Shown here: positions 2,939-63,996 of the stretch, one piece after another | Layout of the letters: each line of letters begins with the position of its first letter | Numbering within the stretch: the stretch's first letter is position 1 | Source: Vicinamibacterales bacterium | GTDB lineage: Bacteria; Acidobacteriota; Vicinamibacteria; Vicinamibacterales; SCN-69-37 | NCBI GenBank assembly: GCA_030827135.1 | Contig: JAURFE010000001.1 | Coordinates: 26,569-90,568, forward strand | Direction: 5' to 3' | Length of the DNA stretch: 64,000 nt | Translations under genes and position numbers: made by a program | The notes under the pieces: generated by a model | Told to the model about the DNA's origin: nothing | Databases searched by the model: none | Seen by the model: only the letters and a program-made list of their open reading frames with translations

Positions 2939-4812
2939 CTCATCTCCCCCGTCTCTGCCAGCACTTCGTGCACGACCACCCGCTGGGTCTTTCCCTTCAC
3001 GGCAATCGCACCAATTTCCCGCATCGCCACCGGCGTCGTCAGCCGCGCCCGTGTCGCCTCGCTGATGAGAATCCGGGCGTAATGATCCTTGGTGGCCGAC
3101 TCCAGACGCGCCCCCAGGTTCACAGCATCACCGATCACCGTGTAACTCATCACCGTGTCGGAGCCGATGTTACCCGCAATCATCTCCCCCGAGTTGATCC
3201 CGATGCCGATCTCCAGCGTCGGCCGCCCCTGCGCCATCCAGCCGGCATTGAGCCGATCCAGTTCCCGCAGCATGTCCAGCGCCGCCGCCACGGCGTGATC
3301 CGCATGCCGTGGGTCGGCTATGGGCGCCCCGAAGAGCCCCATCACCATGTCGCCGACAAACTTGTCGAGCGTGCCGTGGTGACGGAACAGGACGCGCACC
3401 ATGGCGGAGAAATATTCATTGAGTTGTGCCACCACGGCCTCGGGCGTGGCCATCTCGGAGGCGGTCGTGAATCCGCGGATATCGGAAAACAGGACGGACA
3501 TCTCGCGGCGTTGGCCCCCCAGGCGCGCGAGGGACGGATCCGCCACGAGGTGCGCAAAGACGTCCGGTGACACATAGCGGCCAAACAGGACCTTCATCGC
3601 ACGCTTCTGCCGGCCCTCGACAAAATACTGCCAGGCCGTGCCGCCGAATGTCGCCAGTGCCAGACCGAGCACGGGCGCCACCAGGCCGATCCACACGCCG
3701 TTCCCCAGCGCCGCTGTCAGCAGCCAGACCAGGGCCGCGCCGATCGCGGCGACCACGACCACCGCCCACGCCACCGGCAGCACCACACTGCCCACGCCCG
3801 CCGCCACGCTGGCAGCCGCGGTCACCGCCAGATCAACGGGCCAGCCGGCCTTCCGCATGAACTGTTTCGACAACACATCGTCAGCCGCTGCGGCATGCAA
3901 CTGCATGCCGGGCATCGCCGGGCCTCCGAACGGCGAAGGGAACGTGTCCTTCAGCCCGGCCGCCGTCGTGCCGATAAAGACGTACTTGTCACGAAACTCC
4001 GACGGATCCACCAGCGGCGTCGCCCCGTTCAACAGGAGGTCTTCGGAGCGCAGCAGATCGATGAAGGCATAGGTCGTGTAGGTGCGCTGCTGCGCGGCGT
4101 CGGCGTACGGACCGCGCAGCCGGAGCAACATCTGGCTGTCGGGCGCAGGGAGCAGCGGGACCTGCGCCAGATCCGCCTCCGAGACATCGCCAGTCGCCAG
4201 TGCGGTGGCCAACCCGAGCCACGGCACCTGGCGGCCCTGCGCTTCAACAAACGGCCAGATGCGCCGGGCGGTGCCATCCGCGTCCAGTTGCAGGTAGGTG
4301 TGGCCGATGCCCGCCGCGACCGCCGCGAGCTCGGCAAACGGCAGTCGTAATTCGGGACGCGCCGCCACGCCGGTAATGGCGCTCGTGCCGATCGGTCCGT
4401 CGGTCGCGCGCCCCTCGTAGATCGCTTCCGCAGGCAGCACCACGTTGCCGGCGCGGCGCACGCTCTCCACGAACGCGGCGTCGGACTCCGGATTCCGCAG
4501 GTCGCGATCCACAAACAACACGTCGTACGCGATCACGCGGGCGTCTCCGCGCACCAGGAAATCCACCACAGCGGCGTGGATCATCCTCGGCCACGGCCAG
4601 GCCCCGAACGTGGGTTCCAGCAGGCGCAGTGAGGTCTCGTCGATCTCGACCAGCACCAGATCATCCCGGGCCTCTGCGGCCCGGTGGGTGGCGGCCAGCC
4701 GGCGGTCGTATGTGGAGAGTTCCTGGTCGGCGAACACGCCGAGGCGACCCAATCCCGACGCCAGGATCCCGGCGGCGGCGCCGATCGCCAGACCTATCGC
4801 GAGCTTTCGCAT
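2935..4812 (-). CDS. CHASE2-domain adenylate/guanylate cyclase (class III)
   Basis: 625-aa ORF. N-terminal TM helix, an extracytoplasmic CHASE2-like region, three TM helices, then a class III cyclase domain (MSVLFSDIRGFT...FVGDMVMGLFGAP...GINSGEMIAGNIGS). Confidence 0.9.
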   Translation of the reverse strand: MRKLAIGLAIGAAAGILASGLGRLGVFADQELSTYDRRLAATHRAAEARDDLVLVEIDETSLRLLEPTFGAWPWPRMIHAAVVDFLVRGDARVIAYDVLFVDRDLRNPESDAAFVESVRRAGNVVLPAEAIYEGRATDGPIGTSAITGVAARPELRLPFAELAAVAAGIGHTYLQLDADGTARRIWPFVEAQGRQVPWLGLATALATGDVSEADLAQVPLLPAPDSQMLLRLRGPYADAAQQRTYTTYAFIDLLRSEDLLLNGATPLVDPSEFRDKYVFIGTTAAGLKDTFPSPFGGPAMPGMQLHAAAADDVLSKQFMRKAGWPVDLAVTAAASVAAGVGSVVLPVAWAVVVVAAIGAALVWLLTAALGNGVWIGLVAPVLGLALATFGGTAWQYFVEGRQKRAMKVLFGRYVSPDVFAHLVADPSLARLGGQRREMSVLFSDIRGFTTASEMATPEAVVAQLNEYFSAMVRVLFRHHGTLDKFVGDMVMGLFGAPIADPRHADHAVAAALDMLRELDRLNAGWMAQGRPTLEIGIGINSGEMIAGNIGSDTVMSYTVIGDAVNLGARLESATKDHYARILISEATRARLTTPVAMREIGAIAVKGKTQRVVVHEVLAETGEMR

Positions 4813-9755: not shown

Positions 9756-10403
9756 ATGGCCGGACCTTTTGACCGGTTTGCCGATCGCCGCGCCGCGGGC
9801 CGCCGGCTGGCCGCCCAGCTCCAGAGATACGCGGGGCGGACCGACACGCTGATCCTCGGGCTGCCGCGCGGCGGGGTGCCGGTGGCCGCGGAGGTTTCCA
9901 GGATCCTCCGGATCCCGTTCGACGTCTTCGTCGTCCGCAAGCTTGGCGCGCCCTGGCATCCAGAGCTGGCCCTGGGCGCGATTGCGGAGGGCGGAATCGA
10001 AGTCCGCCACGAAGAGGCCATGCGGAGCCTCGGCGTCTCGGCCGCTGAACTGGATGAGGTGGCGGCGGTGGAGCACGAGGAACTGCGGCGCCGCATCCTT
10101 GCCTACCGAGGTGAGCGCCCTCGACTCAAGCTTGAGGACCGGATGGTCATTCTGGTCGATGACGGGCTGGCGACCGGCTCGACGATGGAAGCCGCCATCG
10201 CGGCGGTCCGGCACCTTCGGCCCGCGCGTATCGTGGTCGCGGTGCCCGTGGGTGCCCCGGACACGTGCACGCGGATTGAGGCGCAGGTGGACGAACTCGT
10301 GTGCCCGCTCCGGCCACGCGCCTTCGCCGCCGTCGGTGAGTGGTACGACGACTTCGGGCAGACCACCGACGACGAAGTCCGGGCACTGCTCGCTGCGGAA
10401 TAG
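9756..10403 (+). CDS. phosphoribosyltransferase-family protein
   Basis: 215-aa ORF with a PRPP-binding motif (VILVDDGLATGSTMEAA). Confidence 0.8.
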   Translation: MAGPFDRFADRRAAGRRLAAQLQRYAGRTDTLILGLPRGGVPVAAEVSRILRIPFDVFVVRKLGAPWHPELALGAIAEGGIEVRHEEAMRSLGVSAAELDEVAAVEHEELRRRILAYRGERPRLKLEDRMVILVDDGLATGSTMEAAIAAVRHLRPARIVVAVPVGAPDTCTRIEAQVDELVCPLRPRAFAAVGEWYDDFGQTTDDEVRALLAAE

Positions 10404-10479
10404 CCCCCACAGGCACGTGGGAAATTCGCCCCCCTCTCGCTCCCTGTGTATGAACCCCGGCTGGTGCTGCACGCCTGCG

Positions 10480-10495
10480 TGGTACCGGAGTTGCT
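10480..10495 (+). promoter_or_regulatory. candidate sigma-54 (-24/-12) promoter
   Basis: TGGTAC-cggag-TTGCT matches TGGCAC-N5-TTGCW with correct GG/GC spacing. It lies 59 nt upstream of the CBS gene start. Confidence 0.3.
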
Positions 10496-10553
10496 CTCCT
10501 GAGGGATGGGCCCGGGGCCCAATCCCCGGACAATCCGACCTGGAGCGCGCATC

Positions 10554-11045
10554 ATGCAAATCAGGGATCTGATGAGCCATCCGGCAGTGACGTGTCCGAC
10601 CGCCGCAACCCTCGACCATGCCGCGAGGCTGATGTGGGAATTCGACTGCGGCGTGGTCCCGGTCGTCGACGAACACGGCCGCCTGACCGGCGTCGTGACC
10701 GATCGGGACATCTGCATGGCCGCCTACACGCAGGACAAGGTGCTGGGCGACATTTCCGTCACCACGGCCATGGCAAAACACGTCATTGCCCTCCGCGGGG
10801 ACGAGACCCTCGAATCGGCCGAGCACCTCATGGCCGACAACCAGATTCGCCGTCTGCCTGTGCTCGACCGCGATGACCATGTCGTCGGCGTCGTCTCACT
10901 CAACGACATGGCCCGGCTCGCCGAGGCGTCCAGGCGGATCGGCATCGACCGTGAGTTCGTCACGACAATCGCGGCGGTCGGTCAGCCGCACACAGATGCA
11001 CAGGTCCGCCACAACCTGGCGCCACTGACAGTGACCGAACACTGA
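10554..11045 (+). CDS. CBS-domain pair protein
   Basis: ATG with GGAG 8 nt upstream. Two CBS repeats (GVVPVVDEHGRLTGVVTDRDI; RRLPVLDRDDHVVGVVSLNDM). Confidence 0.8.
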   Translation: MQIRDLMSHPAVTCPTAATLDHAARLMWEFDCGVVPVVDEHGRLTGVVTDRDICMAAYTQDKVLGDISVTTAMAKHVIALRGDETLESAEHLMADNQIRRLPVLDRDDHVVGVVSLNDMARLAEASRRIGIDREFVTTIAAVGQPHTDAQVRHNLAPLTVTEH

Positions 11046-41780: not shown

Positions 41781-42340
41781 GACTCCAACATCCGTTTCAG
41801 ATTCCCAAGTGCGTGAAAAAAATTTGCCTTGGCGGCCCCCACGGTTCCCCCGAGGATGGCCGCAATCTCCTCGTGGGAGAGTTCCTGATACACACGCAAC
41901 ATCACGGTCGCCCGCTGCTTCGCCGGCAGTTGGGCGATCGCCCGCCGGACATCGGCGGCCCGCTCGCCGCGCGCCACCATGCCGAAAGCGTCGTCCGACC
42001 GCTCGTCCACATGACGCGCGGCGTCGAGCGGTTCAATGCCCGGACGGACGAGCGCGGCGCGATTCAGACACACATTCACCGCGACGCGGTGCAGCCAGGT
42101 TGACAGCTTTGCGTCGCCCTTGAACGCCTTCAGGCCTTTGAAGGCGCGCACAAACACGTCCTGCGTGAGATCCGCGGCGTCCTCGTGATTGCGCACGAAC
42201 CGGTAGCACACCTGATACACCCCACGCTGGTGCCGGGCGACGATCGTGTCGAACGCCGCGCGTTCCCCATCCACAAACGAACGCACGAGGGCGAGGTCGT
42301 CCAGCGCCGACAGGTCGGCTGTCACCTTCGAGTCGGTCAC
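41777..42340 (-). CDS. ECF-type RNA polymerase sigma-70 factor
   Basis: Region 2 (YQVCYRFVRNHEDAADLTQDVFVRAF) and region 4 (LPAKQRATVMLRVYQELSHEEIAAILG). Start placed at GTG 42340, which makes a GTGA overlap with the pfkB-like stop. The longest ORF reaches 42400. Confidence 0.85.
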   Translation of the reverse strand: MTDSKVTADLSALDDLALVRSFVDGERAAFDTIVARHQRGVYQVCYRFVRNHEDAADLTQDVFVRAFKGLKAFKGDAKLSTWLHRVAVNVCLNRAALVRPGIEPLDAARHVDERSDDAFGMVARGERAADVRRAIAQLPAKQRATVMLRVYQELSHEEIAAILGGTVGAAKANFFHALGNLKRMLES

Positions 42341-43368
42341 TCCCCGTCCCCACGCTCCGGCGCGCCTGACAACGGCGGCACCGTCTGCTCCCGTCCCCAT
42401 GTTTCCTTAGACCGGCGAAGGGGGCTCTGCGTCACAAAATGCTGCAGTTCCGCCCTCGTCGGCAGGCCGGACTGGGCGCCGCGCCCGCGGCAGTTCAGGG
42501 CCGCCGTCGCGTTTGCGAGGTCCAGAAAATCGGACCACAGACCGCCGGTCCAGGGGTCCAGGAGTCCAGGGGTCCAGAAGTCCCGGGGTCCTGGAGGCCC
42601 GGGGTTCAAGAGCGCCCAGATCAGGCCGGCTCGGAAGGCGTCGCCGGCGCCGGTGGTGTCGGTGACGGGCACGACGTAGCCGGGGGCATAGTGTTCGGTC
42701 TCGCCGTCCCAGGCGATGGCGCCGTTCGCGCCGAGGGTGGCGACGACGACGCGGGCGGCTGAGGCGGCGTGGAGGTGCCGGACGTCTCCTGACAGCGGTT
42801 CGGACACGACGAGAATGTCGACTTCGGCGAGCAGCGCATCGAGGCCCGGCACCTGCGCGTCCACATCGGCGACGGTCAGCACCCCGGCTGCCCGCGCAGC
42901 GCGGGCCATGCGTGCCGACGCATGGGGTTCGGTCGCGTCGACAAGGAGCACCTTCGCGCCGAGCACGGCGTCGACAGGCACGTCATCTCCCCACAGCAGG
43001 GCGTCATCGCGGTGCCACAGCACGGTACGCGTCTGAGCGGCGGCGTCCACAATGATCATCGCCGTTCGCGTCGAGCCCTCGGCGGTTCGGCACCAGGTAC
43101 GGTCAACGCCTTCGCGTGTCAGCGCGTCACAAATGACCGCCGCGTGGCTGTCGGTCCCGAACGCGCCGATGTACCGAACCGAGAGGCCCAGCCGCGCGCA
43201 CCCAACCATCGCCGTCGCGATTTGCCCACCAGGTAGCGTCTCGAGTGACTCGAGCCGCGCCTTCCCATCGGGCGGCGGCAACCCGGCGACCGTGGCGACC
43301 AGATCGACCGAGTTCTCGCCGAAGCCGACGACGTCCCACGTGCGTTGACTTTCGCCTTCCCTTTGCAT
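42337..43368 (-). CDS. PfkB-family sugar/nucleoside kinase carrying a repeat-encoded insertion
   Basis: 343-aa ORF. GFGENSVDLV near the N-terminus and the DTTGAGDAFRAG anion-hole motif. A ~25-aa insertion (NPGPPGPRDFWTPGLLDPWTGGLWSDF) follows that motif. Confidence 0.85.
   Translation of the reverse strand: MQREGESQRTWDVVGFGENSVDLVATVAGLPPPDGKARLESLETLPGGQIATAMVGCARLGLSVRYIGAFGTDSHAAVICDALTREGVDRTWCRTAEGSTRTAMIIVDAAAQTRTVLWHRDDALLWGDDVPVDAVLGAKVLLVDATEPHASARMARAARAAGVLTVADVDAQVPGLDALLAEVDILVVSEPLSGDVRHLHAASAARVVVATLGANGAIAWDGETEHYAPGYVVPVTDTTGAGDAFRAGLIWALLNPGPPGPRDFWTPGLLDPWTGGLWSDFLDLANATAALNCRGRGAQSGLPTRAELQHFVTQSPLRRSKETWGREQTVPPLSGAPERGDGE
42547..42610. repeat. octanucleotide tandem array (GGTCCAGG-like, 8 units) inside the PfkB-family gene
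   Basis: ggtccagg ggtccagg agtccagg ggtccaga agtcccgg ggtcctgg aggcccgg ggttcaag. Confidence 0.8.
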
Positions 43369-43986: not shown

Positions 43987-44310
43987 ATGTCCACTCCTGC
44001 CAAACAACTGAGCTTCACGATCGTCCCGGACGAATCGGCGGACAGCCCCCGCACTTACGCCAACTTCTGCGCGGTCGGGCACACGCCGTTCGACATGACC
44101 CTGACCTTCTGCGACGTGCGGCCGCTGTCGGAACGCGACATCAAAAACGCCGAAGAGCATCAGACCGTGAAGGCGCCGGTCGTGTCGCGCATCGCCCTCC
44201 CCTTCAGCGTGGTGCCCGGCCTCATCAATGCGCTCCAGGAACAGATGCGCTCCATGCAGGATGCCCAGGTGCAGCAGTCGCAGGGCTGGCCCCAGGGACC
44301 GCTCCACTAG
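43987..44310 (+). CDS. DUF3467-like protein
   Basis: 107-aa ORF starting 2 nt after the lexA stop (YANFCAVGHTPFDMTLTFCDV). Confidence 0.7.
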   Translation: MSTPAKQLSFTIVPDESADSPRTYANFCAVGHTPFDMTLTFCDVRPLSERDIKNAEEHQTVKAPVVSRIALPFSVVPGLINALQEQMRSMQDAQVQQSQGWPQGPLH

Positions 44311-44365
44311 ATGAGCGGATGGGCAGTTGGGCGGATGGGCGGCTGAGTTGTTGGGCGGCTGATGG
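44310..44365. repeat. G-rich 8-bp-periodic tandem array (GATGGGCG-like, ~7 units)
   Basis: gatgagcg gatgggca gttgggcg gatgggcg gctgagtt gttgggcg gctgatgg. It fills the DUF3467-nth intergenic gap and runs into the nth ATG. Confidence 0.6.
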
Positions 44366-45409: not shown

Positions 45410-45415
45410 CGGGTT

Positions 45416-45478
45416 CATGTAGGGCCCGCTGGGTTGGAGCGGGCCAGTCATGTAGGGCCCGCTGGGTTGGAGCGGGCC
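45416..45478. repeat. two tandem REP-like palindromic elements (CATGTAGGGCCCGCTGGGTTGGAGCGGGCC x2, 33-bp period)
   Basis: Each copy folds as GGCCCGCT-gggttgg-AGCGGGCC (8-bp stem). Lies between convergent genes and overlaps the last codons of the GNAT gene. Confidence 0.8.
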
Positions 45479-53183: not shown

Positions 53184-53402
53184 GTGGCCTTCCAGCAGGA
53201 CCCCTTCATCGTCGAAATCATCCGGCCGGCCACCGACGAAATCACGGTCGTGGACGTGCTGGTGGGATCACTCGGCGTGGCGGGCGCGCTGGCCCTTGCC
53301 GCGCTTCCGCTGGGGGCACTTGCCGGCTGGCTGTTGATTCGCTGGAAGCAGCGACGACGGCCGGAGGATGACCACATGCCCTCGATCCAGCACCCCAAGT
53401 AG
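53184..53402 (+). CDS. hypothetical small membrane protein
   Basis: 72-aa ORF with one TM helix (LVGSLGVAGALALAALPLGALAGWLLI). Its GTG start lies 6 nt after a TATAGT hexamer. Confidence 0.4.
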   Translation: MAFQQDPFIVEIIRPATDEITVVDVLVGSLGVAGALALAALPLGALAGWLLIRWKQRRRPEDDHMPSIQHPK

Positions 53403-53438
53403 ATGGGCGGCTGGGCGGATGGTTAGATGTGGGTTCTG
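53399..53438. repeat. G-rich 8-bp-periodic array (GGGCGGMTG-like)
   Basis: gtagatgg gcggctgg gcggatgg ttagatgt gggttctg. Spans the gap between the small ORF and the pepA stop. Confidence 0.45.
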
Positions 53439-54976: not shown

Positions 54977-55402
54977 ATGTTACCCCGGCTGGCCTGGCTC
55001 CTCTGCCTGGTTGGTACACTGATCGTCTTTCCGACCTGGCCCCCCGCGGTGTCCGGCGATGGGGCCCAGGGCAAGGGCAAACCGAAGGCCGCGCTGCGGG
55101 TGAACCCGGCCCTCATTTTTGTGCCGCAGCGCATCGTGGCCACCGCAGAACTGACCGGCGGCGCCGACGATTTCCAGGACTACTATTGCCCCAAGATCGA
55201 GTGGATTTGGGACGACACCACCACCTCGGAGTCTACTGAGGACTGCGCAGCCTATGAACCCGGCACGAGCACCATCCGGCGCCGGTACACCGCTGACCAC
55301 ACCTACAAGGATCCGGGCAACTACGACGTCGTCTTCCGGATGAAACAGGGCAGCAAGATCGTCCTGTCACTGCGCCAGACGGTCCGCGCGCAGGGACACT
55401 AG
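54977..55402 (+). CDS. hypothetical secreted protein with PKD-like motif
   Basis: Start taken at MLPRLAWLLCLVGTLIVF. Contains HTYKDPGNYDVVF. Confidence 0.55.
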   Translation: MLPRLAWLLCLVGTLIVFPTWPPAVSGDGAQGKGKPKAALRVNPALIFVPQRIVATAELTGGADDFQDYYCPKIEWIWDDTTTSESTEDCAAYEPGTSTIRRRYTADHTYKDPGNYDVVFRMKQGSKIVLSLRQTVRAQGH

Positions 55403-55467
55403 GGGTCCAGGGGTCCAGGGGTCCAGGGGTCCAGGGGTCCAGGGGTCCAAGGGGTCCAAGGGGTTCG
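55402..55467. repeat. octanucleotide tandem array (GGGGTCCA x5, then GGGGTCCAA x2 and a degenerate unit)
   Basis: Read directly from the sequence. It begins at the stop codon of the upstream gene. Confidence 0.85.
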
Positions 55468-55493
55468 TAGGGCGCGCTGGGTTGTAGCGCGCC
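55468..55493. repeat. REP-like palindromic element (TAGGGCGCGCTGGGTTGTAGCGCGCC)
   Basis: 8-bp stem GGCGCGCT/AGCGCGCC with loop gggttgt. Same family as 45416-45478. Confidence 0.7.
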
Positions 55494-55513: not shown

Positions 55514-57442
55514 TCAGGTGCGCAGTTCGTCCCGATCCGCAAAGTACCGGAGCGCGTCGGGATTCGCGAGCGCCTCGCGGTTCTTCACGGGCTGACCGTG
55601 AATGACGTTACGCACGGCCAGTTCGACCAGCTTGCCGCTCTTGGTTCTCGGCAGTTCGGGCACCTGAAGAATCTTCGCGGGAGCGTGCCGCGGCGACGTG
55701 TTCCGCCGGATCTGCGTCGCGATGGCCTTCCGCATGGTGTCGTCGAGCACAAGCCCGTCACGCAGGCGGACGAACAACACGATCCGCTCGTCCCCCTCCC
55801 ACTGCTGCCCGACGGCCAGACTTTCGATGACCTCCGGGAGTTGCTCCACCTGCCGGTAGATCTCGGCGGTCCCAATGCGCACACCGCCGGGGTTCAGTGT
55901 CGCATCCGACCGCCCGTGGATCACAAACCCACCGTGTGCGGTCCGTTCGGCCCAATCCCCATGACACCAGGCACCAGGAAACCGTTCGAAATACGCGGCG
56001 CGATACTTGTCGCCGGCCGGATCGTTCCAGAATCCAATCGGCATCGACGGAAACGGAGCCGTGCACACCAGTTCGCCCTGACCGCTTCCGGGCACCACAG
56101 ACTTGCCGTCGCCATCCCACACGTCCACGGCCATGCCCAGCCCCGGCCCCTGAATCTCGCCGCGCCACACGGGCTCGGTCGGCACACCGCCAACAAAACA
56201 ACTCACGATGTCGGTGCCGCCGGAGATCGACGCGAGATGGACGTCCGCCTTGATGCCGTCGTACACAAAATCAAAACTCTCCGGCGACAGCGGGGATCCG
56301 GTGGACGTGATCGTGCGGACGGTGCCGAGGTCGTGTGTCTCACGCGGCCGAAGCCCGGCCTTCGCCACGGCATCGATGAATTTCGCAGACGTGCCAAACA
56401 ACGTCACGCCATGCGCCTGCGCGAGATCAAACAGCCGACTTCCATCGGGATAAAACGGCGAGCCGTCATACAAGACGATGGTCGCGCCGGATGCGAGCGC
56501 CGACACCAGCCAGTTCCACATCATCCACCCACAGGTCGTGAAGTAAAACACGCGGTCGCCGGCCCGCACGTCAGCGTGCAACTGGTGTTCCTTCAGGTGC
56601 TGCAGGAGCGTGCCGCCATGGCCATGCACGATGCACTTGGGCACGCCGGTCGTCCCCGACGAATACAGCACGTACAGCGGGTGGTTGAAAGACACTCTGG
56701 TCCAAAGGTCCAGGGTCCAGGGTCCAGGGTTCGCGGTCCAGGGGTCCAGAGGTCCAGAGGTCCTGGAGTCCACGATGAACGTCTGACGGAGTGTCGGGAG
56801 TCGTGTCGTGATCTCGCTGAGCTTCGGCCGACAGTCGTGATACTTGCCGCCGTAGTGATAGCCGGCAACGGCGACGAGGACCTTGGGTTCAATCTGGCCG
56901 AACCGATCGATCACGCCCTGCACACCAAAATCCGGTGAGCACGACGACCAGACCGCGCCGAGTGAGGCCGCGGCAAGCGCGGCAATGACGGCCTCGGGCA
57001 CGTTCGCCATAAATCCGGCGACCCGATCCCCCGACTCCACGCCGGCCGCGCGGAACGCCGTCGCGCACGCCGCGACCTCACGGCGCAACTCGCGCCACGT
57101 CAGCCGACGCTCCTCGCCGGTTTCATCCACCGCCAGAATCGCCAACCCCTCGTCATCGCGGCGCAACAGGTTCTCGGCGACGTTGATGCGCGCGTCCGGA
57201 AAAAACTGCGCCCCGGGCATTTGGTCGCCATCCACAACCGGGCGCGCACCCTTGTCGCCGACCACTCCGCAAAAATCCCAGATCGCGGACCAGAACTCGG
57301 CACGATGCGTGATGGACCATGCGTGAAGCGCGTGGTAGTCGGGAAACGCCTGCCCCGTCCGGGCGGTGACCAAGGCTGTGAAACGGGACAGCGCGGCGGC
57401 GTCGATTCGCGCCGGGTCCGGGGTCCACAGCGGGCTCGCCAT
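55514..57442 (-). CDS. acetoacetate-CoA ligase (acetoacetyl-CoA synthetase) carrying a repeat-encoded insertion
   Basis: Start at [10 protein letters not shown] (ATG 57442). AMP-binding motif [14 protein letters not shown], preceded by the repeat-derived segment [20 protein letters not shown]. Confidence 0.9.
56699..56774. repeat. degenerate GGTCCAG(G) tandem array (7-9-bp units, ~10 units) inside the acetoacetyl-CoA synthetase gene
   Basis: ggtccaaa ggtccag ggtccag ggtccag ggttcgc ggtccag gggtccaga ggtccaga ggtcctgga gtccacg. Confidence 0.8.
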
Positions 57443-57449
57443 TTCCGGG

Positions 57450-58298
57450 TCAGGCTTTCTTGAGCGCCCGGGCGCGCTCAAACAGGTCGCGCACGGAGGG
57501 CGCATCCATCAGCGCCTGCGACGACGTTGGAAGTTTGGCGGCGATGCCGTGTAATGCCTCGGCAATGAAGTCGGCGTTGGTGGAGAGGATGCCCTGCCAC
57601 ACGTCGGACGAACTGGAGGCCAGACGCGTCATGTCGGCAAACCCGGACCCGGACCAGGCCACGCCATCTGGTCCAACCGCTTCCCCCGACGCCGCCATCA
57701 AGGCGGTGGACACCACTTGCGGCGCGTGGCTCACGTGCGCCATCACGCGATCGTGCGTGACGGCATCGGTCCACGAGGGCTTTGCGCCCAGAGCCACAGT
57801 GAAGGTGGTCAGCATCGCTTCCACGGCGTCCCCCGCGTCGTCCGCGCCGCCCGTCGTCGCGGAGACCAGCAGCCATGGTTTGCCGTCGAACAGATCCGCG
57901 CGCGCGGCCGCGAGTCCTGAGGATTCCGATCCTGCCACGGGATGTCCCCCCACAAAGGTTAATCGCGTACGCGCGGCAGCCTCCATCACAGTGCGCTTCG
58001 TGCTTGAGACATCCGTCACCAGCGCGCGAGTGCCGGTCAGCGCCAGCACCTCGAGCACATGCGGCACGGTCTGCACAGGGGTGGCGATGATGATGAGGTC
58101 GGAGGCCGTGAGGTCTTCGATGTGATCGACGACTGCGGTAATCGCTCCCTGGGACACCGCCTCGTGCGTGATCGGCGCCGGGTCACACGCGGTGATGTGC
58201 AACCCGGGCCAGCAGCGGCGGGCCGCCAGCGCCACGGAACCGCCGATCAGGCCGAGCCCAATGATGCCGACGCGCTCAAAGGGCGGCGCCCCGATCAC
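57450..58298 (-). CDS. tyrA: prephenate/arogenate dehydrogenase
   Basis: 282-aa ORF with a GTG start. NAD motif ([10 protein letters not shown]) and GGHPVAGSE. Confidence 0.85.
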
Positions 58299-59347: not shown

Positions 59348-59386
59348 GTCTGTACCTGCACCTTCGTTCGCGAACGTCCTTAGATT

Positions 59387-59572
59387 CTACCGGGCTTTCG
59401 AGGCCTCGCGGTCGAGCCGCCGGCCCTCGTCAATAATCCGCTCAAACACTCGGGTGACCGCCCCGGCATCGAGTGGCCCGGTATTCACGGCCCGGACGAG
59501 GGCGAGCACATCGACTTCCCGTGTGGTCTGGTCGATCGGCTAGATCGGCAGGTCCAGTTCGTCCACACTCAT
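59387..59572 (-). pseudogene. AroQ-type chorismate mutase remnant with in-frame TAG and internal deletion
   Basis: Reads [60 protein letters not shown]. The ATG overlaps the trpA stop (ATGA). The C-terminal half matches CM helices 2-3, but most of helix 1 is absent. Confidence 0.6.
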
Positions 59573-60351
59573 CCCTTCAGCCATCGCACAAACGTGCCGG
59601 CCGCGCGCGCTTCATCGCCCGGCGCGGCCTCGGCGATGACCTGCACCAGCGCGCTGCCGACCACCGCGGCGTCGGCATACGCACACGTTTCGCGCACGTG
59701 CTCGGGTTGCGAGATGCCGAACCCCAGCGCGACCGGCACATCCGTCACCGCGCGGATCTGATCCACCACCGGCCGGGCCGTTCCGGCCACCGCGTCACGC
59801 GCGCCGGTGACGCCCAGTCGGGAAATCGCATAGAGGAACCCGCGCCCGAGACCCGCCGCCGTCCGCAGGCGTTCGGTCGTCGTCGTCGGGCTGATGAGAA
59901 AGATCATGTCGAGCCCTCGACTGTCGAGGGCCGCGTGCATCTCGCCGGCCTCCTCAATCGGGAGGTCCAGCAGCAGCACGCCGTCCACGCCGGCCGCCGC
60001 GGCCGCCTCCACAAACCGCGCCGTGCCCATCCGCGCGACAGGATTCACGTAGGTGAACAAGACGATCGGCGTTTCAATCGTCGCCCGCAGATCGTCCACC
60101 ATCGCCAGCACGGATGTCAGCGACGTCCCTGCCGCCAGCGCCCGTTCTGACGCCCGCTGAATCACCGGCCCATCGGCAATGGGATCCGAAAACGGCACGC
60201 CGATCTCAATGACGTCCGCGCCGGCCTCAGCGATCGCGCGCACCACCGCTTTCGATCGATCCATATCCGGATCGCCCGCGGTGATGTAACAGACCAGGCC
60301 GGCTGTTTTCTCGCGCCGGATCCGTGCGAATGCCTCCGCGAGCCGGCTCAT
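59569..60351 (-). CDS. trpA: tryptophan synthase alpha chain
   Basis: 260-aa ORF ([18 protein letters not shown]...; GFGISQPEH). Confidence 0.95.
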
Positions 60352-62192
60352 CGCCCACCCCCGGACCCCTGAACCTGAAGAAGTTCTCGCACGGTGTCGA
60401 CGTCTTTATCCCCTCGCCCCGAGAGGTTGAGGATCACGATGGCACCTGCCGGAAAGTCCTTGAGATGCTCCTGCACCCAGGCCGCCGCGTGAGACGACTC
60501 CAACGCCGGCAGCAGGCCTTCATTGCGTGCCAGCCACGTAAACCCGCGCAACGCGGCGTCATCGTCGACCCACGCGTATTCCGTGCGCCCGATGGCGGCG
60601 AGATACGCGTGTTCGGGTCCGACGGACGGATAGTCGAGACCGGCCGAGACCGAGTGTGTCGGGAGGATGTTGCCGTGTGCGTCCTGCAGCAGCAGGCTCC
60701 GAGTGCCGTGCAACACGCCGGCGACGCCGCCGGCAAACCGCGCCGCGTGTGCCCCATCGCGAATCCCGCGGCCGCCCGCCTCGACGCCGATCAACCGTAC
60801 GCCGGAGTCGGCCACAAACGCGTCAAAAATGCCCATCGAGTTGCTGCCTCCGCCGACGCAGGCGACGACGGCATCGGGCAGCCGGCCGGTGTCCCGCAGC
60901 ACCTGGGCGCGGGCCTCCGCACCGATGACCGACTGAAACTCGCGCACCATCAGGGGATACGGATGCGGCCCGAGCACCGACCCGAGGACGTATGCCGTGG
61001 TCGCCACGTTCGCCACCCAGTCGCGCATGGCTTCGTTGATTGCATCCTTCAACGTTCGACTGCCTCCGTCCACCGAGGCCACGGTCGCTCCGAGCACCCG
61101 CATGCGGAACACGTTCAGGGACTGGCGCGCCATGTCGTCGGCCCCCATGTAGACCACGCACTCCAGACCGAGCAACGCACAGGCAGTCGCCGTCGCCACA
61201 CCGTGCTGGCCCGCGCCGGTTTCAGCCACCACCCGGGTCTTCCCCATCCGGCGCGCCAGCAACACCTGGCCGACGGCGTTGTTGATCTTGTGTGCGCCCG
61301 TATGCGCGAGGTCTTCACGTTTGAGAAAGATGCGGACGCCGGACGCCCCGGCCAGGTGTGACGCCTCGTAGAGCGGCGTCGGACGGCCGACAAACGTCGA
61401 CAGCAGGTGTTGCAGCTCTGCGACAAACGACGGCTCCGTCCGCGCGGCGAAGTAGGCCGTCGTCAATTCCTCCACAGGCGCTACCAGCGTCTCGGGGATG
61501 AACCGGCCGCCGAATTCGCCGAAGTACCCGCGCGCATCGGGGTCACGCATGCCGAAGGATGGGCGGATGGGTGGATGGGTGGATGGGTGGATGTTGGCCA
61601 TGAGTTCCTTAATACGGGCGTGGTCCTTGATGCCGGGGCAGGATTCGATGCCTGACGACACGTCGATGCCCCAGGGGCGCACGGCCGTGACGGCGGCACC
61701 CACATTCGCGGCCGAGAGACCTCCGGCAAGCAGGATGGGGCGTGCTGCGGCAATCCGGGCAGCCATGGGCCAGTTTGCCGCTCGCCCTGTGCCGCCGTGT
61801 TGGACGGGATCGTGCGCGTCCACGAGCACGATGACGGACTGCGGTACTGCGAGTGCGGCACACACGTCGGCGTCGGACTGCGGTGCGATGGCTTTGATGA
61901 CCTGCACCCCGAGGGAGAGATACTCGCGCGCGTCCTCGCGGCCGTGCAGTTGGACGGCCGTGAGTCCGGCGAGGCCGACCACCCGCGCGACCTCGGCCAC
62001 CGGGGCATCGACAAACACGCCGACCTTCATCACGCGCGACGGCACGCCAACGGAGATTGCAGCAATCTGTTCCGGCGTGATGGCTCGCGGGCTGCCCGGC
62101 CACAATACAAACCCGAGCGCGTTCGCGCCGGCGGCCACGGCCGCGTCCACATCCTCACGACGTGTCAGTCCGCACATCTTGACGACAGTCAT
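60348..62192 (-). CDS. trpB: single ORF encoding phosphoribosylanthranilate isomerase (TrpF, aa 1-~197) followed by tryptophan synthase beta (TrpB, from ~aa 215)
   Basis: 614-aa ORF. TrpF (VKMCGLT...[16 protein letters not shown]), a linker [15 protein letters not shown], then TrpB ([15 protein letters not shown]...HTGAHKINN). No stop between the two. Internal ATGs at 61601 and 61550 could start TrpB independently. Confidence 0.9.
61557..61596. repeat. octanucleotide tandem array GGATGGGY x5 at the trpF/trpB junction
   Basis: ggatgggc ggatgggt ggatgggt ggatgggt ggatgttg. On the coding strand it encodes the [10 protein letters not shown] linker. Confidence 0.85.
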
Positions 62193-62986
62193 GCGCAGTC
62201 CTTTGTGAGCGCGCCGAGCGCCGCGCCGGGTTCTGCCGCGGACATGAAGTGCTCACCGATCAGAAACGCGTGATACCCGGCAGCACGCAGTCGCGTGAGA
62301 TCCGCAGCGGTGCGCAGTCCGCTCTCGGCCACTGACGTGACTCCAGCGGGGATCATCCCGACCAGTTCCTCGTGCAGCCCAAGGTTGACCTCGAGCGTCT
62401 TCAGATTGCGGCTGTTGACGCCGACGATGTCTGCGCCCGCGGCGATCGCACGCGTGAGCTCCTCGCGGTCGTGCACCTCCACCAACGCCGCCAGCCCTTC
62501 GGCCTGCGCGCGTCGCAGCAGCCTCGTCAGCTGCCCGTCACCCAGGCCTGCGACGATCAGGAGTATCGCGTCGGCGCCTGCGGCGCGCGCTTCGGTGATC
62601 TGAAACTCGTCGGAGAGAAAGTCCTTGCGCAACACGGGCACGTCCACGGCCGCCCGTACCCGTTCCAGATGGTCGAGGGCCCCGTCAAAGAAGCCGCCCT
62701 CGGTCAGCACGGAGATTGCCGCCGCGCCGGCGTCGGCATAGCCGCGCGCAATGGCCGCCGGATCGTAGTTCACGCGCAGCACGCCCTTGGCGGGCGACCG
62801 TCGCTTGCACTCGGCGATGACCGACATGCCGGGCGCATTCAAGCGCTCGCGAAAGAGCACGCCCCGGGGCTGCCTGGCCGCGGCCGCCCGCTCGACGGCC
62901 GCCCCCTCACGCGCGGCACGCGCGCGCGCCGCCGTGGCGGACGCCGCCATGATGGCCGACAGCAGGTCGCCCGGTGCGGTCCTCAC
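62189..62986 (-). CDS. trpC: indole-3-glycerol-phosphate synthase
   Basis: 265-aa ORF ([13 protein letters not shown]...; LRKDF; GVNSRNL). GTGA overlap with trpD and ATGA overlap with trpF. Confidence 0.95.
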
Positions 62987-63996
62987 GGCCGGGCCACCTG
63001 CCGCAATGTCTCCAGCGTCGCGGCGGCACGGCCGCTGTCGATCGCCTCCGCCGCGGCCGCAATGCCGTCACGCACGGATGCGGCCGCCCCGGCGATCAGC
63101 AGTCCCGCGCCCGCATTCAGCAACACGATGTCGCGGGCCGCACCACGCTCGCCGGCGAGCAGACGCTCGATCAGCGCCGCATTCTCGGCCGCCGTGCCCC
63201 CGACAAGCGCCTCCTTGGGCGCGATCGACAATCCGACATCTGACGGATGGAGATAAAACGTCCGCACGGCGCCGCCCTGAAACTCCGAGACCTTGGTGAA
63301 TCCCGTGGTCGACAACTCGTCGAGACCATCCGCCCCGTGCACCACCCAGGCCCGTTTCGTGCCGAGCAGACCGAGTGTGCGCGCGAGCAGCTCGGTGTGT
63401 TCCGGGCGCGAGACGCCGACGAGTTGTCGGCGGGCCCCCGCCGGATTGGTCAGCGGTCCGAGCAGGTTGAACGCTGTGCGCACACCGAGCTCGCGACGGG
63501 TGGGGCCTGCATGTTTCATCGACGGGTGCCACGCGGGCGCGAAGAAGAATGCCAGGTTCGCGTCGAGCAGTGTCTGGACGACACGCGCGGGAGGGGCATC
63601 CAGCGCGACGCCCAGCGTCTCGAACACGTCCGCGCTGCCGCACCGGCTCGACACCGCGCGGTTGCCGTGTTTGGCCACACGCACACCGCAGGACGCCAGC
63701 ACGATCGCCGCGGCGGTGGACACGTTGAACGTGTGCGCCCCGTCGCCGCCTGTGCCGCAGGTATCGAAGACGTCCCCAACGGGCGCCGGGAGCGGCACGG
63801 CGCGCTCACGCATGGCCGTGGCAAACCCGACCATCTCCGGAGGACGCTCCCCCTTGAGCGCCAGAGCCATCAGCAACCCCGCGATGTGCGCGGGTTGTGC
63901 CTGACCGTCCATGATGAGGCCCATGGCGCGCGCGGCCTCGGCTTCAGTCAGATCTTCGTGGCGACGCAGTTTCTCCAGCCATTCAGCAAACATCAC
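62983..63996 (-). CDS. trpD: anthranilate phosphoribosyltransferase
   Basis: 337-aa ORF (DTCGTGGDGAHTFNVST...; KHGNRAVSS). The start sits at the window edge and probably overlaps the stop of an upstream trpG-like gene. Confidence 0.95.
   Translation of the reverse strand: MMFAEWLEKLRRHEDLTEAEAARAMGLIMDGQAQPAHIAGLLMALALKGERPPEMVGFATAMRERAVPLPAPVGDVFDTCGTGGDGAHTFNVSTAAAIVLASCGVRVAKHGNRAVSSRCGSADVFETLGVALDAPPARVVQTLLDANLAFFFAPAWHPSMKHAGPTRRELGVRTAFNLLGPLTNPAGARRQLVGVSRPEHTELLARTLGLLGTKRAWVVHGADGLDELSTTGFTKVSEFQGGAVRTFYLHPSDVGLSIAPKEALVGGTAAENAALIERLLAGERGAARDIVLLNAGAGLLIAGAAASVRDGIAAAAEAIDSGRAAATLETLRQVARP

Follow-up and report, generated by a model that had tools for sequence, protein, structure and literature searches.

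A probably intact TrpF-TrpB fusion gene with an octamer-encoded linker in a Vicinamibacterales bacterium

Introduction

Neighboring genes of the tryptophan operon encode one polypeptide in TrpC-TrpF of Escherichia coli (PDB 1pii) and in TrpA-TrpB fusions (PDB 7a20), for which the stop and start at a tightly coupled junction were presumably lost (PMC4755613, PMC2395257). The joining of TrpF to TrpB is discussed in the general literature on trp fusions only for Coxiella burnetii, where CBU1155 is such a fusion (PMC6736304, PMC10239878), its function is stated as unknown, and the trp pathway has decayed (PMC6736304). We describe here a trpF-trpB gene on a 64,000-nucleotide stretch of DNA from a Vicinamibacterales bacterium (Acidobacteriota; assembly GCA_030827135.1, contig JAURFE010000001.1, positions 26,569 to 90,568 of the forward strand), which we call the window and number from its first letter. 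The segment linking the two enzymes is encoded by an array of octamers. The gene is very probably an intact, inherited, and bifunctional one, in which the linker varies by slippage that is filtered for reading frame, and not an on/off switch.

The window protein resembles CBU1155 and the family NF010376 (PRK13803) in that an N-terminal phosphoribosylanthranilate isomerase (PRAI) is followed by a C-terminal tryptophan synthase beta in one polypeptide. It differs from the Coxiella type in that, according to the phylogeny, it arose independently in Vicinamibacterales-like Acidobacteriota, the nearest relatives of which have separate genes, and in that its linker is microsatellite-encoded and variable in length within an operon that looks intact. 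As in TrpC-TrpF and the TrpA-TrpB fusions, neighboring trp operon genes are joined, but TrpF and TrpB do not catalyze consecutive steps, and substrate channelling therefore offers no obvious benefit.

For the repeat, two kinds of system invite comparison. The G-rich 7-nt tandem repeats of Xanthomonas and Nostoc (GGGNATC or short tandemly repeated repetitive [STRR] type) lie near stop codons and avoid coding regions (Rehm et al. 2015; PMC4692102). Shared with that class are non-triplet, G-rich units of 6-9 nt, arranged in tandem at many loci, often in about 4 copies and in many cases within 50 bp of a stop codon; three window arrays start at or right after a stop, and one strand of the trpF-trpB array contains four G3 tracts. 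In contrast, the window unit is 8 nt long, has another sequence, and comes from another phylum, G-quadruplex (G4) potential is not common to all arrays, and the trpF-trpB array as well as at least two other window arrays are translated. We found nothing specific in the literature on such repeats in Acidobacteria. The simple sequence repeat contingency loci of Haemophilus and Neisseria are alike in that a non-triplet repeat lies within an open reading frame (ORF), so that slippage by a single unit shifts the downstream frame. The present case differs in that copy number did not vary among the assemblies, the array is short, a housekeeping gene is concerned, and variation between relatives preserves the frame.

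Results

Domain organization of the fused gene

The fused gene is divided as follows, with the evidence for each assignment in brackets.

60348..62192, minus strand: trpF-trpB fused ORF (Pfam PRAI and PALP, NF010376, TIGR00263, identical protein P0122)
61590..62192, minus strand: TrpF (phosphoribosylanthranilate isomerase) domain, residues 1-201 (PF00697, TrpF chains of the PDB, AlphaFold, invariant C7/D125)
61551..61589, minus strand: linker, residues 202-214, 13 residues (translation, AlphaFold, comparison with unfused relatives)
60348..61550, minus strand: TrpB (tryptophan synthase beta) part, residues 215-614 plus stop (TIGR00263, TrpB chains of the PDB, HTGAHKINN)

An earlier note, made from the letters of this DNA alone, had described trpF and trpB as joined in one 614-codon ORF, and this is confirmed by Pfam, NCBIfam, and the ORF list, in which a single ORF of 614 codons plus stop passes the trpF/trpB junction without a stop codon. 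The PRAI domain (PF00697) spans residues 4-199 and model positions 1-192 of 193 at 144.4 bits against a cutoff of 22.7, and the PALP domain (PF00291) spans residues 269-592. Among the NCBIfam models, TIGR00263 (TrpB) covers residues 222-603 at 594.5 bits, above its cutoff of 392.45, and NF002298 (PRAI) scores 207.4 bits, slightly below its cutoff of 215. NF010376 aligns end to end (residues 3-606 against model positions 6-596 of 600), and as its 683.3 bits lie below the curated cutoff of 819, the window protein is not an equivalog of this model. Solved TrpF chains align over residues 2-200 and solved TrpB chains over residues 215-610 (E = 1e-162 to 1e-133), and a search of PDB chains with the window protein found no solved structure that spans a TrpF-TrpB fusion.

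In a 42-sequence alignment of fused homologs, C7 and D125 of TrpF are invariant; we take these to be the catalytic residues by analogy with Cys7 and Asp126 of Thermotoga maritima TrpF. The GGTG motif and the pyridoxal phosphate-lysine motif HTGAHKINN (H297-N305) of TrpB are likewise invariant among the 42 sequences. When AlphaFold was run with this alignment, the TrpF barrel was modelled with a predicted local distance difference test score (pLDDT) mostly above 90 and a last helix at residues 191-201, followed by residues 203-238 with pLDDT below 50 and then by the TrpB fold. The model is consistent with a linker that is a disordered tether, rich in His, Pro, and Ser. A genuine bifunctional protein, which was one of the options in the earlier note, is the option favored by the evidence, and the single polypeptide is, as far as its sequence allows us to infer, the functional product. 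As a point of annotation, the ORF is to be read as a bifunctional TrpF/TrpB rather than as a frameshifted pair or as "tryptophan synthase subunit beta" alone. Several database records name fused proteins only "tryptophan synthase subunit beta."

The octamer array

The repeat within the linker is located as follows.

61557..61593, minus strand: octamer tandem array (Tandem Repeats Finder), GGATGGGY on the plus strand and CATCCACC-type on the sense strand

Tandem Repeats Finder reports a period of 8 with 4.6 copies, 96% matches, and the consensus GGATGGGT, and the sense-strand sequence of the array is CATCCACC CATCCACC CATCCACC CATCCGCC CATCC. It extends from the third base of codon 200 through codon 212 and so encodes most of the linker, as had been proposed. 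The proposal of five octamers at 61557-61596 holds for the period of 8 but not for the number of full units, as there are four good units plus a partial one, the degenerate fifth, GGATGTTG, with which the count reaches 61596. The unit is free of stop codons in all six frames, and the array itself consequently never closes the ORF; as other lineages are fused without a repeat, the earlier suggestion that the repeat specially keeps the frame open is not borne out. When the window was scanned at period 8 with a minimum of 4 copies and no more than 3 mismatches, 4 loci accounted for 5 hits, and none of the 30 first-order Markov simulations that served as the control produced a hit. The array is not due to chance.

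It could be argued that a collapsed or mis-called repeat conceals a stop or frameshift and that the genes are really separate, as short repeats can mis-assemble and the window is of metagenomic origin. The identical protein P0122 is, however, present on 16 public contigs, and in the 8 independent metagenome assemblies that were read (different samples and assemblers; ENA, NCBI, Logan) the junction DNA is identical, with 0-5 nt differences across the 1845-nt gene. Such agreement rules out an artefact, including the hidden stop or frameshift that the earlier note had contemplated. Furthermore, the array of 37 nt is far shorter than a read, and at this site related species have arrays that differ in length and are in frame, so that the chance of a sequencing or assembly error can be regarded as negligible. 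The linker is also identical in P0001 and P0122-P0124, four near-identical database proteins. At the level of the population consensus, copy number is fixed in the species.

Fused and separate genes among relatives

A scan of one genome per species yielded 80 loci (L numbers; P numbers are database proteins), nearly all of them labelled as metagenome-assembled genomes (MAGs) of Vicinamibacterales, Vicinamibacteria, or Acidobacteriota. As tblastn joins both halves whether they are fused or not, junctions were re-examined individually. Only L001-L007 are fused, and in 70 of the 77 loci with both anchors, trpF and trpB are separated by a stop and/or a frame change, in agreement with the earlier statement that the two genes are usually separate. 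L001, L004, L007, L057, L076, and other MAGs are labelled Acidimicrobiia, Solibacteraceae, Bifidobacterium, or Gemmatimonadaceae, and their trpFB loci cluster tightly with Vicinamibacterales; mis-binning or mis-classification is the probable reason.

Where close relatives have separate genes, the stop codon of trpF and the start codon of trpB share bases (ATGA in L015 and L019, GTGA in L028), and TrpB starts M-x-S-S-..-P-S-F-G-R-R-D-P-D, with 7-19 residues ahead of the RDPD motif when it is separately encoded. As PSFG.RDPD belongs to the N-terminal tail of the separate TrpB in these relatives, the PSFG.RDPD that closes the window's linker can be identified as the old TrpB N-tail, and the last four linker residues are the start of this ancestral tail. 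The place of the array is filled in unfused relatives by the C-terminal tail of TrpF, the stop/start overlap, and the N-terminal tail of TrpB.

Many further fused forms are present in the protein database. The window's clade, at 72-100% identity, has linkers of variable length, and a second fused group, at about 60-64% identity, has short ("..LPAFGRRDPD") or Pro/Ala-rich ("..WFGRRDPD") linkers; on the TrpB tree the two groups are parted by unfused lineages. In a neighbor-joining tree with 40 bootstrap replicates, which is indicative only, unfused L015 is sister to fused P0021 at 100%, and unfused L091 is nested in the window's clade with 55-67% support. A single fusion that was never reversed held as an account of the genome loci alone, and this monophyly was broken once database proteins and L091 were added.

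One pair of relatives illustrates how a fusion can come about without a repeat. L096 (fused, P0021) and L095 (separate, P0146) fall into the same 90%-identity cluster and differ by one 31-nt indel, the 31 nt present in L095 and absent in P0021 including the stop of trpF, the ATG of trpB, and a 13-nt spacer. As 31 leaves a remainder of 1 on division by 3, the deletion joins the trpF and trpB frames in P0021. At the DNA level the case is clear: L096/P0021 is a recent, repeat-free, independent trpF-trpB fusion (or fission). Taken with the separate fused groups, this case indicates that trpF-trpB fusion occurred more than once, also without any repeat, and over evolutionary time the fused and separate states have flipped between close relatives.

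Two unfused relatives carry heptamer arrays in the same region. In L091 (2455-2500; also in L093), GAACCYY x6 at the trpF/trpB junction encodes the last TrpF residues and the TGA stop, with the trpB ATG 7 nt downstream, and in L051 (6621-6658) a GACCAGA x5.4 array lies at the trpF end.

Array length and reading frame

Homologous arrays of 3.4-10.6 units lie at the same junction in the fused relatives L001, L002, L003, L006, L089, and L090. They consist of CCGCCCAC x3.4 in L001, CATCTCCC x6.9 in L002, CCCATCCG x3.9 in L003, CCACCTCG x10.6 in L006, and CCCCATYT in L089 (7 units) and L090 (4 units), and the units can be converted into one another by rotation or by changing 1-2 bases. L004, L005, and L007 are fused with non-repetitive linkers. 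Many fused proteins in the database show an 8-residue linker periodicity, for example, LPHWPIAS/LPHSPAAP and SSPHLLIS/SSPHLQIS.

Between close relatives, the clean differences in length are all of 3 units (24 nt, 8 amino acids [aa]) and keep the frame. Three such cases were found: L089 has 24 nt more than L090 (PHLPISPF, three units), P0013 has 8 aa more than P0012/P0007, and at the TrpB C-terminal tail, L003 has exactly 24 nt (8 aa) more than the window. This last site belongs to the second octamer family of the window.

60363..60370 (tail 60354-60380), minus strand: single-unit remnant in the TrpB C-tail (..VQGSGGGR-stop), second octamer family (AGGGGTCC in the sense direction; GGGTCCAG family)

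At the site of this remnant, L003 (3672-3714) carries GGTCCAGG x5.4 and retains the ATGA overlap with trpA. It can be proposed that replication slippage alters the length of the arrays over evolutionary time and that purifying selection on frame would account for the 3-unit steps. As the array is followed by TrpB in the same frame, changes would survive only if they preserve that frame, and slippage filtered in this way would make the array a source of linker-length variation rather than an on/off switch.

Unit gain, unit loss, and internal initiation

Two internal ATG codons lie close to the linker; both had been pointed out in the earlier note (at 61601 and 61550) and both exist, as Met198 and Met215.

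61599..61601, minus strand: ATG of Met198, candidate internal start (sequence; AAGGAA 4 nt upstream)
61548..61550, minus strand: ATG of Met215, candidate internal start (sequence; no Shine-Dalgarno-like sequence upstream)

Gain and loss of units were simulated on the array sequence. The fusion is kept with 3 units more or fewer, TrpF ends at a TGA that overlaps ATG215 (ATGCGTGA) with -1 or +2 units, and the frame runs 70 nt beyond ATG215 with +1 or -2 units. The earlier expectation that a change of one or two units would break the fusion or restore separate genes therefore stands for -1/+2 but not for +1/-2, where the reading frame passes well beyond the ATG.

A phase-variable switch would follow if single-unit slippage toggled within populations between fused and separate TrpF and TrpB, or turned TrpB off. 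With its 8 nt, the unit is not divisible by 3, and it precedes TrpB within one ORF, the -1/+2 overlap of TGA and ATG215 resembles translational coupling, and fused and separate states do alternate among close relatives over evolutionary time. However, no copy-number polymorphism was found at the array among the 8 independent assemblies or the 4 near-identical proteins, four to five units make a short array with low expected slippage, and the variation observed comes in 3-unit steps. Relatives, including those with the same array, have Q, L, H, or R at position 215, so that ATG215 is not conserved, and the +1/-2 state, passing it by 70 nt, would probably abolish TrpB. A housekeeping biosynthetic enzyme is also not a typical contingency gene. 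A working switch at the junction, as the earlier note had envisaged, thus finds no support in the constant copy number, the 3-unit steps, and the unconserved internal ATGs, and we consider it quite improbable.

The internal ATGs could alternatively mean that two polypeptides are made, with TrpB arising mainly from ATG198 or ATG215 and the long ORF giving chiefly TrpF with a C-terminal extension or a fusion as a minor read-through product. Both codons exist, AAGGAA precedes ATG198, and the separate TrpB of relatives starts just 7-19 residues before RDPD. Against this, fused relatives conserve neither ATG nor AAGGAA: the last TrpF helix of unfused homologs has a hydrophobic Phe in the position of Met198, and AAGGAA is not conserved in L001 or L002. 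ATG215 lacks a Shine-Dalgarno-like sequence, and a promoter scan found no promoter-like site at the junction. As no stop codon releases TrpF, every ribosome that starts at trpF makes the fusion, and the conservation of frame across the array in all fused relatives makes sense only if the array is translated through. Production of two polypeptides is accordingly an unlikely account. No RNA structure at the junction exceeded shuffled controls (z = +0.95), and no Rfam family was found in the window.

Related repeats elsewhere in the window

Two octamer families occur in the window, each at 3 or more loci in 64 kb, a count far above chance. GGATGGGY-type units are found, besides the trpF-trpB array, at 44310-44362 and 53402-53422, and GGGTCCAG-type units at four places (42547-42605, 55401-55464, 56699-56772, and the TrpB-tail remnant). 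The arrays are as follows.

42547..42605: GGTCCAGG-family array, about 7 units, translated, inside a PfkB-family kinase ORF (42337..43368, minus strand)
44310..44362: GATGGGCG-family array, of the unit family to which the trpF-trpB array belongs, that fills the spacer separating a DUF3467 gene from an HhH-GPD glycosylase gene
53402..53422: GATGGGCG-family array that fills the 20-nt gap between two convergent stop codons
55401..55464: intergenic AGGGGTCC x7.8 array, about 50 nt downstream of the stop codon of the acetoacetate-CoA ligase gene
56699..56772: translated GGGTCCAG / GGTCCAG array of about 9 units, within an acetoacetate-CoA ligase ORF (55514..57505, minus strand)

The kinase array forms an insertion of about 20 aa after the GAGDAF motif when compared with solved ribokinases (6znx), and the ligase array replaces a variable surface segment of 4wd1 (E = 2e-184) with no net change in length. 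An array of the ligase-array family also lies inside a long ORF of L041 (4767-4817), about 3 kb downstream of trpB. Three arrays (44308-44362, 53400-53422, and 55400-55464) start exactly at the TAG of a plus-strand ORF, which is followed by ATGAGCGG, ATGGGCGG, and GGGTCCAGG, respectively; two of these ORFs have no Pfam match and therefore may not be genes. Of the 50 period-7/8 arrays in about 0.95 Mb of related loci, 13, three of them in the window, lie deep within long ORFs.

Heptamer and octamer arrays are also found about 2.5 kb upstream of trpF in L022, L023, L030, L037-L039, L050, L052, L065, and L066 (at about 3400-3600) and 2-3 kb downstream of trpB in L016, L031, L049, L052, L066, L073, and L077 (at about 9950-10850). 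The occurrence of unrelated units at similar syntenic positions suggests preferred intergenic sites of array formation. All six large arrays of the window (42.5-61.6 kb) are G-rich on the plus strand whatever the orientation of the neighboring gene, with the TrpB-tail remnant opposite, and the overall GC skew of the window is slightly negative (-0.036). A perfect 33-bp direct repeat x1.9 at 45415-45478, each unit of which has a GC-rich hairpin (GGGCCCGCTGGGTTGGAGCGGGCC), and a similar hairpin (GGGCGCGCTGGGTTGTAGCGCGCC) directly after the 55401 array (at about 55465-55490) may represent a family of elements like repetitive extragenic palindromes.

An origin of the octamer unit from TrpB's own Pro-Ser codons was considered, as single copies such as CCATCTCC are there in unfused L015; the occurrence of this unit at unlinked intergenic sites weakens the idea. 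G4 potential was likewise rejected as a property common to the arrays, as the (G3+N1-7)x4 motif fits 61561-61587 (plus strand) and 55393-55481 and no other window arrays.

These observations bear on a function at the level of the nucleic acid, in which a template-strand G4, or an unstructured C-rich tract of the mRNA that acts as a pause or Rho-loading site, would tune trpB-trpA and the peptide would be incidental. The canonical motif at 61561-61587, a C-rich mRNA tract that is unpaired in the minimum free energy fold, the recurrence of the unit at several loci, and the G4 formation in vitro and clustering near stops of the similar G-rich 7-nt repeats of Xanthomonas and Nostoc (PMC4692102) are all compatible with it. 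The junction arrays of L002 and L006 do not fit the G4 motif, however, nor do several window arrays, and G4 formation is therefore not a conserved property; moreover, L004, L005, and L007 remain fused without a repeat, and translation of the tract would occlude Rho loading. Such a function has, in our judgment, very little probability.

The surrounding trp operon

The fused gene lies among the following trp genes.

59569..60351, minus strand: trpA (ORF list; start overlaps the trpB stop by 4 nt, ATGA; Trp_syntA called downstream in identical contigs)
62189..62986, minus strand: trpC, indole-3-glycerol phosphate synthase (ORF list; stop overlaps the trpF start by 4 nt; PF00218 called upstream in identical contigs)
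62983..63996, minus strand: trpD, anthranilate phosphoribosyltransferase (ORF list; Glycos_transf_3 at the homologous position in relatives)

The operon order is trpD-trpC-(trpF·trpB)-trpA, and the trpD/trpC junction, like those of trpC/trpF and trpB/trpA, is a 4-nt overlap. In the relatives L089, L091, and L093, a chorismate mutase (CM_2) gene of 91-93 aa lies between trpA and the gene for 3-deoxy-D-arabino-heptulosonate 7-phosphate (DAHP) synthase. In the window, the gap between trpA and the DAHP synthase gene is only 221 nt (59348-59568), with no listed minus-strand ORF of at least 60 aa; the chorismate mutase gene may be absent or decayed here, as apparently in L096.

Discussion

When the domain assignments, the identity of the junction across assemblies, and the frame-preserving variation among relatives are placed together, we consider it very likely that the window carries an intact, inherited TrpF-TrpB gene with a linker that is resized by frame-filtered slippage. 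Several observations weigh against this interpretation. The assemblies compared are consensus sequences, blind to minority copy-number variants within the population, and the fusion product is known here from sequence and predicted structure. An ATG is present at position 215 here, unlike in relatives, and as the -1/+2 variant would create the coupling-like ATGCGTGA, a rare separated state is conceivable; with AAGGAA 4 nt upstream of ATG198, some internal initiation is possible too. The number of clean 3-unit steps is limited to three, and the close pair P0130 and P0009 differs by 5 aa. In addition, the same octamer unit recurs at unlinked loci, which local slippage alone does not explain.

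The architecture of a TrpF-TrpB fusion was already known, and it is the microsatellite-encoded, stepwise-evolving linker that is new and distinctive. More speculatively, it could be imagined that stop-free, non-triplet (7-8 nt) microsatellites are a general engine of protein evolution in this acidobacterial lineage. They would colonize gene ends and junctions, persist over long times in coding sequence by three-unit slippage, build or resize linkers, tails, and surface loops, and, where junctions are tightly coupled as in trpF/trpB, promote repeated fusion and fission. We offer this as a tentative idea that is more doubtful than probable; if it were true, the presence of the same two units at unlinked loci would point to an unknown mechanism of dispersal or templating.

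In conclusion, a single enzyme-enzyme junction can be traced here through separate genes, a fusion by simple deletion, and a fusion by a microsatellite tether that changes in 8-residue quanta. The junction therefore forms a convenient system for the study of the origin of linkers and of the way in which slippage in non-triplet coding repeats is filtered by selection, and the analysis flags uncharacterized, dispersed octamer and heptamer repeats in Vicinamibacterales, which are abundant but poorly studied soil bacteria.

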